The notes beneath the pieces were generated by a model. The model was not told the DNA's origin. It worked only from the letters and a program-made list of their open reading frames with translations, and made no database searches. A program made the position numbers and the translations under genes. 5,607 bases of DNA from a virus (taxonomy: Duplodnaviria > Heunggongvirae > Uroviricota > Caudoviricetes), in the IMG/VR virus record IMGVR_UViG_2706794683_000008. One strand, given 5' to 3'. Below are positions 683 through 5,607 of the stretch, piece by piece (position 1 is the stretch's first letter; each line of letters begins with the position of its first letter).

Positions 683-1156
683 ATGAATACAGCTATAACT
701 TTTTCTAACGAGTCACCAAAAGTCTTTTTCAAAGATGGTCGCCTGGTTACCACCTCTCAAGCTGTTGCCGACTACTTCGATAAACAACATAAACACGTTT
801 TAGCTAAGATTGACACACTCGACTGCTCTCCCGAATTTACATCAGCCAACTTTTCGGCCGATGTTCAGACTGTCGAAATTGGCAACGGCGCAGAACGTGA
901 ATCACGATGCTACCTGATCACAAAANNNNNNNNNNNNNNNNNNNNNNNNNNNNNNNNNNNNNNNNNNNNNNNNNNNNNNNNNNNNNNNNNNNNNNNNNNN
1001 NNNNNNNNNNNNNNNNNNNNNNNNNNNNNNNNNNNNNNNNNNNNNNNNNNNNNNNNNNNNNNNNNNNNNNNNNNNNNNNNNNNNNNNNNNNNNNNNTTTA
1101 TCTGGAGCAACATGGGTGGATCGTTGCCCGTAAAGAACAATTGGTGGAAAGGTTGA
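683..1156 (+). CDS. Rha-family phage regulatory protein; middle masked by N-run, C-terminus uncertain
   Basis: ATG at 683 with GGAG at 670..673. N-terminal 81 aa (MNTAITFSNESPKVFFKDGRLVTTSQAVADYFDKQHKHVLAKI...FTSANF...RCYLITK) matches the Rha domain pattern as I recall it. Reading frame runs through the 171-nt N-run (57 codons) to a TGA at 1154..1156; an alternative post-gap frame ends at 1165..1167. Confidence 0.6.
   Translation: MNTAITFSNESPKVFFKDGRLVTTSQAVADYFDKQHKHVLAKIDTLDCSPEFTSANFSADVQTVEIGNGAERESRCYLITKXXXXXXXXXXXXXXXXXXXXXXXXXXXXXXXXXXXXXXXXXXXXXXXXXXXXXXXXXFIWSNMGGSLPVKNNWWKG
926..1096. other. N-run (171 nt): masked or unsequenced, inside the Rha gene
   Basis: Run of n characters; length is a multiple of 3. 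Confidence 0.95.
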
Positions 1157-1528: not shown

Positions 1529-1672
1529 AACCGCAGCACGTTCCTGCATACGACGTGTCTGCGGCATAATCCCAATGATTACTCCCTGACAGGATTTGCA
1601 GGCCACTCAATATCAGGTGCAGTTGATGTATCAACACGATTCAACAATACCCGATATTTATTCCATGCCTCC
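1529..1672. repeat. Direct repeat copy A (~143 bp): tfa 3' end plus downstream hairpin
   Basis: Aligns by eye with 2799..2941 at roughly 85-90% identity; includes an imperfect hairpin at 1531..1564. Confidence 0.8.
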
Positions 1673-1812
1673 AGCAACGATCTTTCTTCCTCCGTTGCGA
1701 TTTCCAGATCTACAGCATCCTGCAGTGGCGCAATATACTCACTAAATTCCTGGATGTAGAACTGTGTGGTGACGGTCTTCCAGCCATTCGGCTCCTGCTG
1801 TATCGAAGCATA
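1579..1812 (-). pseudogene. Orphan 3' fragment of a tail fibre assembly (Tfa-family) gene, 77 codons plus stop
   Basis: Minus-strand translation ...[40 protein letters not shown] parallels the C-termini of the two intact tfa genes in this window (e.g. ...[35 protein letters not shown]). Bounded upstream by an in-frame stop at 1813..1815; no 5' part present. Confidence 0.6.
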
Positions 1813-1916
1813 CTAGGCTATTTCAATATCGCTATGCTGCGGCAGCATTTAACCCCTTGTAATTCATCGCCATAATTGATTTAATTCACAAATAAAACTA
1901 TAACATGGTGAAATCA

Positions 1917-2793
1917 ATGAAAACAAACACAGATGATGGGGCTAAAATTTACACACCACTTACCCTAAAGCTTTATGACTGGTGGGTTTTGGGAGTATCA
2001 AATCGGCTTGCATGGGGATGTCCTACAAAGGAACACCTTCTTCCACACTTTCTGGAACATTTAGGTAACAACCATCTGGATATTGGTGTTGGAACTGGGT
2101 TTTACCTTACTCACGTACCTGAGAGTAGTCTGATATCTTTAATGGATTTGAACGAAGCTAGCCTGAACGCGGCATCTACAAGGGCTGGGGAATCAAAAAT
2201 TAAACATAAAATTAGCCATGATGTTTTTGAACCTTATCCCGCGGCGTTACATGGTCAATTTGATTCCATTTCCATGTTTTACCTTCTTCACTGCCTGCCT
2301 GGAAATATATCTACAAAAAGCTGTGTAATACGCAATGCGGCGCAGGCCTTAACTGANNNNNNNNNNNNNNNNNNNNNNNNNNNNNNNNNNNNNNNNNNNN
2401 NNNNNNNNNNNNNNNNNNNNNNNNNNNNNNNNNNNNNNNNNNNNNNNNNNNNNNNNNNNNNNNNNNNNNNNNNNNNNNNNNNNNNNNNNNNNNNNNNNNN
2501 NNNNNNNNNNNNNNNNNNNNNNNNNNNNNNNNNNNNNNNNNNNNNNNNNNNNNNNNNNNNNNNNNNNNNNNNNNNNNGATGGAACTCTATACGGAGCCAC
2601 AATTCTTGGCGATGGAGTTGTGCACAATAGCTTCGGTCAAAAACTGATGCGCATTTACAATCAGAAAGGCATCTTTTCAAACACAAAAGATTCCGAAGAA
2701 GGCTTAACACATATACTCTCAGAGCATTTCGAGAATGTTAAAACCAGGGTTCAAGGTACTGTAGTAATGTTTTCCGCTTCAGGGAAAAAATAG
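1917..2793 (+). CDS. Class I SAM-dependent methyltransferase (Rossmann fold), interrupted by an N-run; substrate unknown
   Basis: ATG at 1917 with GGTGA 5 nt upstream (alternative ATG at 1905 lacks one). Motif I LDIGVGTG, acidic post-I residue (LMDLNE), motif II-like FDSISMFYLLHCLP, motif III-like DGTLYGATILG immediately after the gap. TAG stop at 2791..2793. It may be the e14 ymfD-type methyltransferase, but I cannot verify that from memory. Frame before the gap (codons from 1917) differs from the frame after it (codons from 2578). Confidence 0.7.
2357..2577. other. N-run (221 nt): masked or unsequenced, inside the methyltransferase gene
   Basis: Run of n characters; length is not a multiple of 3 and the coding frame differs on the two sides. 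Confidence 0.95.
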
Positions 2794-2800
2794 CATCCAA

Positions 2801-2833
2801 CCGCAGCACGTTCTTGCTTAAGACGTGCTGCGG
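2801..2833. terminator. Hairpin (11-bp perfect stem, 11-nt loop) between the convergent methyltransferase and tfa-fragment stops; possible terminator
   Basis: CCGCAGCACGT (2801..2811) pairs with ACGTGCTGCGG (2823..2833). No U-run directly after it on the plus strand; on the minus strand a T-run follows about 9 nt later. Imperfect copy at 1531..1564. Confidence 0.35.
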
Positions 2834-2847
2834 CATAATCCCAATGA

Positions 2848-2931
2848 TTACTCCCTGACAGGGTTCGTAGGCCACTCAATATCAGGTGCAGTTGATGTAT
2901 CAACACGGTTCAGCAACACCCGATACTTTTT
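2848..2931 (-). pseudogene. Orphan 3' fragment of a Tfa-family gene (27 codons plus stop), fused in frame to the invertase remnant
   Basis: Minus-strand translation [27 protein letters not shown]; TAG at 2932..2934 sits where copy A has a Trp codon (EAWNKYR versus EA*KKYR). Confidence 0.55.
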
Positions 2932-2940
2932 CTAGGCTTC

Positions 2941-3174
2941 CACCACCAGCACGACAAGATGCCGCATACAGTGCCCCAGTCAGTCCAGTTTTCAGACAAC
3001 CAGTGCGTCACCTTTTTGAAGGCGCTTTAAAGCACGTTTTAATCCAGGTCGGCCTGTCCTTGTTCCGCTTAATTTATCTTCAAATATTTGTTCATATCCT
3101 GCACAAACAAGAGCGTTTCGTTGCAGGTCTGTATTCTGGTCATTTGTTGATACCCTTACATAGCCAATCAGCAC
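2941..3174 (-). pseudogene. pin: Serine DNA invertase (Pin/Gin/Hin/Cin family) pseudogene: N-terminal catalytic region only
   Basis: GTG at 3174..3172 with GGGAGA 6 nt upstream. Translation (V)LIGYVRVSTNDQNTDLQRNALVCAGYEQIFEDKLSGTRTGRPGLKRALKRLQKGDALVV has the catalytic-Ser motif. In-frame TGA at 2992..2994 (where Trp is expected) and 2980..2982 (where Arg is expected), then degraded sequence, then fusion to the tfa fragment. The C-terminal DNA-binding domain is absent. Confidence 0.8.
3021..3081. promoter_or_regulatory. Candidate recombinational enhancer (two Fis-like sites) inside the invertase remnant
   Basis: GGCGCTTTAAAGCAC (3021..3035) and GCTTAATTTATCTTC (3067..3081): each 15 bp with G...C ends and AT-rich centre, centres 46 bp apart, 90-150 bp into the invertase coding sequence. 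Placement matches what I recall for Hin/Gin enhancers; the Fis motif is degenerate. Confidence 0.3.
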
Positions 3175-3228
3175 GCTGAATCTCCCGTCCAAAAGCACAA
3201 ATCATGCCATGCAGGCCAGAAACCGCCA

Positions 3229-3254
3229 TTATCTAAAACCTCGGTTTACGAGAA
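3229..3254. other. 26-bp crossover site for a Gin/Pin/Hin-type invertase (gix/pix-like), left boundary of the invertible segment
   Basis: TTATCTAAAACC TC GGTTTACGAGAA; its reverse complement TTCTCGTAAACCGAGGTTTTAGATAA closely matches Mu gix as I recall it (TTCCTGTAAACCGAGGTTTTGGATAA). Lies 55 bp from the invertase start, and the tail-fibre frame opens inside it. Confidence 0.8.
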
Positions 3255-4163
3255 CTCGGCACAAGCGGGGAGAAAATACCGTTACTCAGTACAGCGAATA
3301 CCTGGACTAATCGACAAACATTCAGCGGTGGCCTTTCTGGTGAACTATCCGGCAATGCTTCTACAGCTGCAAAATTAAAAACTGCCAGGAAAATAAGCAA
3401 TGTGGCTTTTGATGGTTCCTCCGATATCACATTAAAAGCAAGTCATGTTGGTGCGTTTGCCTTAGGGAAAACAGGAAGCACCGTTGCGAATGATAAAGCA
3501 GTTGGATGGAACTGGAGTAGCGGAGCCTATAACGCAACTATTAGTGGTGCATCAACGTTAATTATTCATTTTTATATGGGAGAAGGAAGTTGTCCTGCAG
3601 CTCAGTTTCGGATTAATTATAAAAATGGCGGTATTTTTTATCGTTCAGCCCGTGATGGTTATGGTTTTGAAGCCGACTGGTCCGAATTTTACACCACCAG
3701 AAAACCTTCAGCAGGAGATGTTGGTGCACTGCCGTTATCTGGTGGTCAACTGAATGGTGCACTGGGTATCGGAACATCCAGTGCTCTTGGCGGTAATTCG
3801 ATTGTATTGGGTGATAATGACACGGGCTTTAAACAAAAAGGCGATGGTAATCTGGATGTTTATGCTAATAACGTCCATGTTATGCGCTTTGTCTCCGGAA
3901 GCATTCAAAGTAATAAAACCATAAATATTACGGGACGTGTTAATCCCTCGGATTACGGTAACTTTGATTCCCGCTATGTGAGAGATGTCAGACTTGGCAC
4001 ACGAGTTGTTTAGACCATGAAGAAAGGCGTGATGTATGAAAAATCAGGCCATGTAATCACGGGGCTTGGTATTATCGGTGAAGTCGATGGTGATGATCCG
4101 GCAGTATTCAGACCAATACAAAAGTTAATTAACGGAACATGGTATAACGTATCGCAGGTATAA
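3237..4163 (+). pseudogene. Silent, promoterless tail-fibre variable C-terminal cassette with an in-frame amber codon
   Basis: Frame is open from 3237, directly after a TAA inside the crossover site, with no start or ribosome-binding site. Tail-fibre-like translation (...TFSGGLSGELSGNASTAAKLKTARKISNVAFDGSSDITLKA...). TAG at 4011..4013 interrupts a conserved C-terminal region; the same frame continues ...[47 protein letters not shown] to 4163, paralleling the expressed copy (...[18 protein letters not shown]). Confidence 0.7.
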
Positions 4164-4165
4164 TC

Positions 4166-4699
4166 ATGCAGCATTTAAAAAACATTGTCGCAGGTAATCC
4201 AAAAACCGTTGAACAATACCAGCTAACAAAGAATTTTGATGTTATCTGGTTATGGTCCGAAGATGGAAAAAATTGGCATGAGGAATTAAAAAACTTTCAG
4301 GAGGATACAATAAAACTGGCTTACACAGTTGAGGGAATAATTATTGCTATAGACAAGGATGTATCAGCAATTAATCCAGAAGGTTTAAGTGTCGTTGAGT
4401 TGCCTGATATTACAGCAAATCGCCGGGCTGATATTTCGGGCAACTGGATGTTCAAAGATGGTGCGGTGATAAAGCGAACTTATACCGAGGAAGAGCAAAG
4501 GCAACAAGCGGAAAATGAAAAGCAGAGCCTGCTGCAGCTCGTCAGGGATAAAACCCAGCTGTGGGACTCTCAGCTACAGCTGGGCATCATTTCCGATGAG
4601 AATAAACAAAAATTAACCGAGTGGATGCTCTATGCGCAGAAGGTTGAATCCACAGACACCTCCAGCCTGCCAGTAACGTTTCCCGAACAACCAGAATGA
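4166..4699 (+). CDS. tfa: Tail fibre assembly protein (Tfa family), partner of the silent cassette
   Basis: ATG 2 nt after the cassette stop; 177 aa; N-terminus [22 protein letters not shown]... closely parallels the other tfa here; typical Tfa C-terminus. Confidence 0.85.
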
Positions 4700-4702
4700 G
4701 AG

Positions 4703-4730
4703 AAGGCCCGCTATCGGGCCTTAATTTTTA
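4703..4730. terminator. Hairpin terminator between the two convergent tfa genes
   Basis: AAGGCCCG (4703..4710), loop ctat, CGGGCCTT (4715..4722), followed by AATTTTTA on the plus strand; sits between the stops at 4697..4699 and 4728..4730. Confidence 0.5.
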
Positions 4731-5255
4731 TTCAGGCTTTTGTGGCCATTCAGGATTTGCCGTATCCACACGGCTGACCAGAACACTGTAGCGTTCCCAT
4801 GCTTCCAGTCGTGTGCGTTCCTCGTCTGTTGCCATATTCAGCCTGACAGCTCGTTCCAGCGGCTGGATGACTGATTCAGCTTCGGAAAGCAATGCGGCCT
4901 TTTGTGATTCGGCCTGTTGTTGCAGTTCCTGTTCTGTATATTCCCTCTTTACTACTTTACCATCCAGAAACATCCATTTTCCGTTATTGTCTGCGTGACG
5001 ATTTGCCGTAATATCAGGAACTTCAACTATGCTTAGCCCTTCAGGATTAATAGTTGAAACGTCTTTACTGACAGCAACGATGATGTTGTTCTCATCGTAA
5101 GCAATTTTTATGGTGTCTGGCTGAAAATTCTTTTGTTCCTCATACCAGTTTTTGCCATCTTCGCAAAAGAGCCATACCACGCCCGCTTTTTTAGTTAGCT
5201 GGTATTGTTCCGGTGTTTTCGGATTCCCGGCCTTAATATTTTTCAGGTGCATCAT
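4728..5255 (-). CDS. tfa: Tail fibre assembly protein (Tfa family), partner of the expressed tail fibre
   Basis: ATG at 5255..5253, 1 nt after the tail-fibre TAA, with GGGGAG upstream; translation [22 protein letters not shown]...[13 protein letters not shown]. The track ORF beginning at 5291 is an upstream in-frame extension. Confidence 0.85.
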
Positions 5256-5256
5256 C

Positions 5257-5607
5257 TTAAACACTCCCCACGTTGTACCATATTCCCCCAATCAATTTCT
5301 GAATTGGCCTTCTGGCAACAGTGTCGACAATATCATCCGCATTGCTGTTAATTGCGGCTGTTAAAACATAACCTGACGCATCGCCAAAGCCGTAGTCGCG
5401 CCATACGTTTTTATATTCAATGCTGCCAAGACGAATATCCCGAACGACATGATTATGCAGCCATGTGCTTAACCAGTTGTTTTCCCACACTGAACCATAA
5501 ATATCGCCACTAGACGCAACTTGCGCACCACTTCCCAGCGCAAATTGAGGTAGCCTGAGTTTAACGGACACTCCTTCCTGAAATAGAATGGCATCAGAAG
5601 GAGCTAA
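5257..5607 (-). CDS. Tail fibre protein, C-terminal part (5' end beyond the window); the copy in expression orientation
   Basis: Minus-strand frame is open from the window edge ([12 protein letters not shown]...) to TAA at 5259..5257; C-terminus ...[18 protein letters not shown] parallels the silent cassette. Confidence 0.8.

Follow-up and report, generated by a model that had tools for sequence, protein, structure and literature searches.

The 5,607-nucleotide stretch of Caudoviricetes DNA recorded as IMGVR_UViG_2706794683_000008 in IMG/VR (the window, in what follows) carries at positions 1917 to 2793 a gene that is almost certainly a copy of ybcY, a prophage-borne gene of Escherichia coli. 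Considering its sequence, its profile matches and its predicted fold, the product is probably a stand-alone class I S-adenosylmethionine (SAM)-dependent methyltransferase acting on a small molecule, which prophages carry as a moron under a promoter of its own. The preliminary description of this DNA, made from the letters alone, had left the gene unrecognized. Since ybcY is a common and uncharacterized prophage-borne gene, the finding, though real, is an ordinary one: catalogues already list the gene (K-12 b0562, WP_000240999.1, PHROG 2132), and the class of its product was annotated before.

Identity and integrity of the ybcY copy

The open reading frame (ORF) lies on the plus strand, from ATG 1917 to the stop at 2791-2793, with a further in-frame ATG at 1905. 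Because the methionine encoded by ATG 1917 is invariant across the ybcY family, this codon is likely the true start; ybcY measures 669 nt and encodes 222 amino acids as annotated, or 218 when counted from the invariant methionine. The protein corresponds to WP_000240999.1 at 98-100% identity, labelled 'class I SAM-dependent methyltransferase' in RefSeq, and matches PHROG 2132 (function unknown) with an E-value of 3.2e-156 over positions 1-218 of 218, that is, the whole profile. The name YbcY was found in one phage record and confirmed by the K-12 record (b0562, cryptic prophage DLP12). At a threshold of at least 95% nucleotide identity, 3832 (71%) of the 5426 complete E. coli genomes contain the gene, some of them in as many as four copies, and the 90% protein cluster of its product comprises 6589 sequences. 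Our literature searches found no functional study of ybcY, WP_000240999, b0562 or PHROG 2132; a K-12 ybcY mutant had no effect in an Hha toxicity assay, the K-12 copy being a pseudogene.

As written, the coding sequence is broken by a run of 221 N; the halves flanking it contain no stops, but their frames differ, the 877 nt not being a multiple of three. When compared by blastn with E. coli EC958 (locus L001), positions 1097-2356 of the window corresponded to L001 5598-6857 and positions 2578-3997 to L001 6859-8281. A single base occupies the mask position in all twelve reference loci, namely EC958, K-12 DLP12, phages ev243 and PhiR26_1, and eight more from E. albertii, E. coli, Shigella flexneri and two mislabelled contigs of metagenome-assembled genomes (MAGs). 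This base is read as C in EC958, ev243 and PhiR26_1, which gives the codon GAC (Asp) and restores ...NAAQALT-D-DGTLYGATILG..., a typical class I beta-5 segment, within an intact 222-amino acid ORF. Since the 221 N stand for one base in the references, no protein segment is hidden and the length of the mask is uninformative; a motif concealed beneath it, for which the preliminary description had left room, is ruled out by the same single base. Provided that the mask replaces one base here too, the copy in the window would be intact.

The other N-run of the window (926-1096) has 171 N in place of 244 nt of the Rha gene relative to EC958; together with the 221 N that stand for one base, this indicates that the N-run lengths in the window are untrue. 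A related contig (L028) has its own 90-N run at 2754-2843, over the ybcY start, where the window has 78 nt. N-runs in windows of this kind are thus not readable as true lengths, and frames or lengths taken across them are untrustworthy. L019 and L028, which are contigs of MAGs labelled Bacillus sp. and Planococcaceae, carry ybcY and flanks 98-100% identical to E. coli, most likely as E. coli DNA contaminating the bins.

Some database entries for the family are irregular. One product from an E. coli chromosome (P0001) contains an internal tandem duplication of 47 amino acids, a Shigella sonnei 'prophage protein' (P0079) joins a tail-fibre N-terminus to the C-terminal half of YbcY, and a third (P0060) joins an N-terminal part with a PF08786 match to the C-terminal part; the three show signs of frequent cassette rearrangement or of assembly errors. 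RefSeq also places a 45-amino acid 'hypothetical protein', WP_001309429.1, on the minus strand at 2738-2875, antisense to the ybcY 3' end and across the hairpin that follows it, which is probably a spurious call.

Methyltransferase class and conserved residues

Class I motifs I to III, as the preliminary description had read them, are in place. Motif I is LDIGVGTGFY at 2076-2105, whose glycines G61, G63 and G65 never vary in 34 sequences and are kept in at least 90% of a set of 102 representatives, 31-56% identical to the query. It is followed by the acidic LMDLN, with its Asp at 2145-2147, by HDVF, with its Asp at 2220-2222, and by beta-4 FDSISMFYLLHCLPG at 2259-2303. The N-terminal half is matched in Pfam by Methyltransf_12 (1.9e-7) and also by Methyltransf_25 and Methyltransf_11. 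Asp81 is invariant in the 102 representatives and Asp106 among close relatives, and hhalign sets both on Asp77 and Asp102 of BelI, which are SAM ligands in that enzyme (PMC11408123).

The AlphaFold model (predicted local distance difference test 90.4, predicted template modelling score 0.86) displays seven strands, a pair of helices at the N-terminus and, after beta-5, a helical insertion; the predicted seven-stranded beta-sheet is that of a class I (Rossmann-fold) methyltransferase. Among the matches listed in the structure search of this model are small-molecule, lipid and natural-product methyltransferases, and no DNA methyltransferase is among them. A fold search of viral proteins in BFVD gave generic uncharacterized methyltransferases and capping enzymes, and nothing further. 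The nearest solved proteins by sequence profile are juvenile hormone acid O-methyltransferase (JHAMT, 8e-6) and UbiG (2e-3), the former (PDB 7EC0) being also the top Foldseek match. Both share with YbcY a Methyltransf_11/12/25-type core and the 'LLH' segment after beta-4, whereas their match spans the SAM-binding core alone (about 100 residues) and their substrate-binding caps are unrelated. A small-molecule substrate for YbcY is, on these matches, somewhat favoured. The preliminary description had proposed a small-molecule, RNA or protein methyltransferase, of which the first part is supported by the structure searches, whereas the RNA and protein models in NCBIfam score at noise level.

The features of DNA-modifying enzymes that we looked for are absent from YbcY. 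A pattern search for motif IV, [DNS]PP[YFWH], found it in 0 of 34 family members, the segment after beta-4 being FYLLHCLPG, and the masked stretch amounts to one base, in agreement with the earlier statement that an N6-adenine or N4-cytosine DNA methyltransferase is not supported. Such enzymes, whether Dam-like or phage orphans, have in common with YbcY the Rossmann-type SAM fold with GxGxG, in contrast to which YbcY lacks both motif IV and a target-recognition domain and matches none of them by structure or profile. The C5-cytosine signatures PCQ, ENV and PF00145 are likewise missing: the cysteines of YbcY stand in GCP and HCL rather than in Pro-Cys, and a Pfam scan returned no DNA methylase match and no PF00145 at E-values up to 1.

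Other assignments were tried and set aside. Against the curated NCBIfam models the best scores were those of CpaM (17.3 bits, cut-off 180) and PmtA (15.6, cut-off 390), far under the cut-offs, so that membership in a housekeeping family of the UbiE, UbiG, PrmC, CmoA or PmtA type was rejected; this absence of a characterized housekeeping match agrees with the preliminary description. PADLOC-DB 2.0 gave no defence family, with mad2 alone at an E-value of 0.029 and 11 bits, which is noise, and defence-system membership was discarded on this result and on the lack of conserved partner genes. Domain fusions offered no clue, since the long homologues have N-terminal extensions without Pfam domains, apart from one fungal case with an RCC1 domain.

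Residues D81, H129, G157 and D189 are invariant across the 102 representatives, and Y16, Y24, D25, W37, C39, H57, C130, K138, N179, F184 and N186 are conserved in at least 90%; H167 and N168 are conserved among the close relatives. In the hhalign comparison with BelI (94-97% probability), His129-Cys130 fall on the metal ligands His122-His123. BelI and CysG (PDB 9FCE, 9G0K; PMC11408123), from the biosynthesis of belactosin and cystargolide, are carboxyl O-methyltransferases that depend on Ca2+ and act on 3-alkylmalates. YbcY is only about 17-27% identical to them, has Cys for the second His and a C-terminal third that cannot be aligned, and does not demonstrably conserve their substrate ligands Arg22, His167 and Arg187; ybcY also lies outside any biosynthetic cluster. 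The (nearly) invariant His129-Cys130-Asp189 set hints at a metal-assisted active site.

Cassette, promoter and distribution

The features at the locus are collected in Table 1. Positions 1602-2945 of the window are 96-98% identical to the K-12 segment tfaX-ybcY-tfaD 3' and 99% identical to phages ev243 and PhiR26_1 (blastn, tblastn), and ybcY is bracketed there by direct repeats, each made of a minus-strand tfa 3' end plus a stable hairpin. The right-hand hairpin sits between the convergent ybcY and tfa 3' remnant, and a diverged copy lies at 1531-1564. With the tfa and pin remnants on the minus strand and the gene on the plus strand, its earlier description as cargo opposite in orientation to its phage neighbours is sustained; the cargo is of moron type, and the genes opposite to it are those of the tail fibre.

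Table 1. Features of the ybcY locus, in window coordinates
Feature	Positions	Strand	Remarks
ybcY-family class I SAM-dependent methyltransferase, coding sequence	1917..2793	+	broken by N-run; RefSeq start is ATG 1905
Run of 221 N within the coding sequence	2357..2577		single base in 12 reference loci
Promoter-like hexamers TTAACC-16-CATAAT	1849..1876	+	upstream of ybcY
Promoter-like hexamers TTGATT-16-TATAAC	1877..1904	+	same hexamers as K-12 RpoD site
tfaX-like tail fibre assembly remnant, left cassette arm, divergent from ybcY	1618..1848	-	97% identity to ev243/PhiR26_1 fragment
3' end of tfaD-like tail fibre assembly gene, right cassette arm	2851..2946	-	32 codons, 91% identical to K-12 TfaD
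Direct repeat, left copy (tfa 3' end and hairpin)	1529..1676		about 148 nt, about 90% identity
Direct repeat, right copy (tfa 3' end and hairpin)	2799..2945		about 148 nt, about 90% identity
Stable hairpin	2801..2833		11+3 bp, -23.6 kcal/mol, z -5.2; 8 nt past ybcY stop
Dead pin-type serine invertase remnant	2946..3198	-	Resolvase N-terminal domain alone remains; stop after 68 codons

In K-12 DLP12 the order is tfaD (+), ybcY (-, pseudogene), tfaX (+), appY, ompT. The gene, its orientation and its flanking tfa fragments are the same as in the window, with the difference that the K-12 pseudogene (655 nt annotated) lies near appY-ompT, whereas the copy in the window lies in a trp-ompW remnant and abuts a dead pin. 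Intact lambdoid phages have the order J - lom - stf - tfa - [ybcY, opposite strand] - tfa fragment - hydrolase - ompT - int, which puts ybcY behind the tail fibre genes, in the moron slot of the 'b-region'. By comparison with K-12 DLP12, ev243 and PhiR26_1, the copy in the window shows this synteny too, as an opposite-strand gene with a tfaD-type 3' end on one side and a tfaX-type fragment on the other.

The preliminary description had assigned the gene to a known defence hotspot next to the invertase, a position that in e14 holds mcrA. Although the e14 order stfE-pinE-mcrA is correct, the assignment is not supported. In the pin remnant a TGA replaces a Trp of Pin, more decay extends up to the tfa junction, and RefSeq lists it as a pseudogene; the tfa 3' fragment intervenes between it and ybcY, the junction of cassette and pin lying at about 2946, and PADLOC was negative. 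As this junction is found in about 400 genomes, against about 3800 bearing ybcY, and the native setting is the tfa cassette, the adjacency to the invertase is secondary. By sequence comparison, the native conserved setting is the cassette tfa / ybcY / tfaX as found in DLP12 and in lambdoid phages, to which pin appears to have been joined secondarily. In e14 (pinE-mcrA) and Mu (gin-mom) a non-structural gene likewise follows an invertible tail-fibre segment and its invertase, but e14 McrA is a type IV restriction enzyme, whereas ybcY has no DNA-related features and is adjacent, by way of the 2946 junction, to a truncated invertase pseudogene. The likeness to e14 pin-mcrA is a positional analogy and not the origin of ybcY.

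The proposed promoter of ybcY rests on the two sets of hexamers in Table 1. For the divergent K-12 ybcY/tfaX spacer, a study by genomic SELEX (systematic evolution of ligands by exponential enrichment) reports a constitutive RpoD-holoenzyme site together with H-NS binding, and the promoter predicted there is TTGATT-17-TATAAC (PMC3946193). In the window TATAAC ends at 1904, so that a transcript would begin after ATG 1905, which again favours ATG 1917 as the start. An Rfam search found no riboswitch ahead of ybcY.

A profile search of 1.84 billion representatives recovered 1760 clusters at E-values up to 0.001 and 418 at up to 1e-30, most of about 220 amino acids, with members also in Providencia, Cedecea, Acidobacteria and lichen-forming fungi. 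In species-representative genomes a relative is encoded at 527 loci, in genera that include Enterobacter, Salmonella, Klebsiella, Yersinia (Y. pestis among them), Erwinia, Pantoea, Proteus and Photorhabdus as well as the Pseudomonas syringae group, Xanthomonas, Dyella and Pasteurellaceae. The homologues of Salmonella, Enterobacter, Erwinia and Yersinia are chromosomal and outside prophages, and that of Aeromonas sits among transposase genes. Clustering of the ORFs at 80 loci from 31 genera found no recurrent neighbour, generic SDR, LysR and GATase proteins recurring at variable distances, which argues that the enzyme works alone; nor is a restriction partner annotated beside ybcY in the window region or in lambdoid phages. 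A methyltransferase-esterase pair, considered in view of the alpha/beta hydrolases near the gene in ev243, Erwinia and Enterobacter, was rejected, as the Abhydrolase_1/TAP-like protein of the phage has no relationship to the COesterase of Erwinia (BLASTP E-value 0.87). Against the Citrobacter, Enterobacter and Klebsiella homologues, the ratio of nonsynonymous to synonymous substitution rates (dN/dS) is 0.10-0.13, and in these sequence comparisons ybcY is shown to be under purifying selection.

The region as a whole represents a decayed prophage that in ST131-type genomes sits at ompW beside trpA, and the neighbours of ybcY in the window are fragments: tfa remnants, a DUF4376 remnant, the dead pin and a truncated ompW. 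At the left end (1-223, L001 4514-4654) the remnant is inserted in ompW, of which the 3' fragment alone is left in EC958; a truncated lom and an ISEc12 are found further to the right. The Rfam candidate RNA IS009 (RF02111) matches at its full length on the tfaX-like remnant (1622-1825, minus strand; 110.8 bits, gathering score 117) and has a weaker partial match on the second tfa remnant (2891-2970, minus strand). What is listed as an 'RNA family' seems to be nothing other than tfaX/tfa 3' sequence. Beyond the pin remnant, the tail-fibre segment has on either strand one gp37_C-type fibre tip (3402-4013, +; 5257-5571, -) and one Caudo_TAP gene (4166-4699, +; 4728-5291, -), together with an inverted repeat (4166-4324 / 5097-5255). 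The pin-type invertase being dead, the invertible stf/tfa segment is frozen in one orientation. Near the left end, Rfam matches were obtained for the C4 antisense RNA (RF01695, 545-632, 75.9 bits, gathering score 45), the Hfq-binding RNA isrK (RF01394, 447-521, 72.2 bits, gathering score 50) and, slightly below its gathering score, the c4 a1b1 target element (434-486). All fall on the plus strand within an 'ash family protein' ORF (411-686), directly upstream of the Rha-family gene, and the arrangement at 434-632 looks like a switch of P1/P7 immI type or Gifsy isrK type over an antirepressor-like gene.

Proposed function and alternatives

In the mechanism that we propose, YbcY would be a cytoplasmic protein of the lysogen, expressed separately from the phage late operon by a sigma-70 promoter of its own that H-NS probably damps. 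SAM would be bound through the GVGTG loop, Asp81 and Asp106, and its methyl group would pass to a heteroatom, most likely the oxygen of a carboxylate or hydroxyl, on a small metabolite or xenobiotic. This substrate may occupy an aromatic-lined pocket between the N-terminal helices (Y16, Y24, D25, W37) and the post-beta-5 insertion (N179, F184, N186, D189). His129-Cys130-Asp189 may hold a catalytic metal as His-His-Asp does in BelI and CysG. The benefit would go to the lysogen, through detoxification or metabolite modification rather than DNA modification, and the diverged tfa 3' repeats may act as portable homology by which the cassette moves between phages or gets lost.

Several observations weigh against this proposal. 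The K-12 gene is a pseudogene and no phenotype has been reported for ybcY in the literature, and the bases under the mask in this particular genome are hidden from view. For the metal site, hhalign left the third ligand unaligned (Asp189 versus BelI Asp191), also with a more diverse profile, and a His after beta-4 is common in the clan. The tRNA-modifying CmoA, CmoM, Trm9 and METTL6 score nearly as well in the structure search, and the median isoelectric point of the family, about 8.9, is compatible with a nucleic-acid substrate. YbcY could accordingly be pictured as methylating a macromolecule other than DNA, either a tRNA or rRNA nucleoside or a host or phage protein such as, in view of the adjoining tfa sequences, a tail fibre component. 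We regard this as unlikely: the NCBIfam models for RNA and protein methyltransferases are all at noise level, the best sequence and fold matches are small-molecule enzymes, ybcY is transcribed opposite to the late genes, and the family is accessory and patchy, with non-phage chromosomal contexts and no tfa nearby outside E. coli. A different possibility keeps the small-molecule substrate and places the enzyme in phage-host conflict, methylating for example a signalling nucleotide, a cofactor or a phage-derived metabolite. It draws on the variable moron slot downstream of the lambdoid tail fibre genes, near the conversion genes ompT and lom, and on the spread of the gene, in up to four copies each, through 71% of complete E. 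coli genomes; as there is no PADLOC family or conserved partner gene, the close homologues in Salmonella, Enterobacter, Erwinia and Pseudomonas are ordinary chromosomal genes, and the literature searches gave no support, we consider it decidedly improbable.

This particular copy might instead be an inert relic in a graveyard of prophage pseudogenes, disrupted under the mask or silent. All its neighbours are fragments, its halves as written are out of frame, the K-12 gene has itself decayed with H-NS bound at its promoter region, and many truncated or chimeric versions exist in databases. Set against this, neither visible half contains a stop, their identity to the intact 222-amino acid protein is about 98-99%, the twelve related loci agree on one base at the mask, genomes of ST131 type have an identical junction that is annotated intact, and dN/dS is about 0.1, which together make a relic rather improbable. 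Phages often carry orphan DNA methyltransferases, and Mom of phage Mu has a DNA modification function. With the gene downstream of an invertase remnant, where e14 has mcrA, the pin-mcrA and gin-mom positions would thus invite the reading of YbcY as a DNA methyltransferase protecting phage or host DNA, as an anti-restriction or orphan epigenetic enzyme; given a protein without motif IV, target-recognition domain or any structural or profile match to such enzymes, we think this very improbable indeed.

Being already catalogued and very common among prophages, ybcY matters little for this window in particular, and its identification does away with the tempting but mistaken view of a gene for DNA modification or defence next to an invertase. 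For the stand-alone small-molecule methyltransferase that we favour, a more speculative and, in our judgement, doubtful extension is that YbcY forms a distinct metal-assisted family (H129-C130-D189, plus C39 and H57), spread on the tfa-bracketed cassette by lambdoid phages and benefiting lysogens chemically; if true, such a benefit, for instance the detoxification of a thiol-, carboxylate- or heterocycle-type gut toxin, would explain the prevalence of about 71%. Found in that share of complete genomes and evolving under purifying selection, with homologues that extend across Gammaproteobacteria and to lichen fungi, ybcY is among the most widespread E. coli prophage morons without an assigned function, and knowing the substrate of YbcY would add a lysogenic-conversion trait for lambdoid phages.

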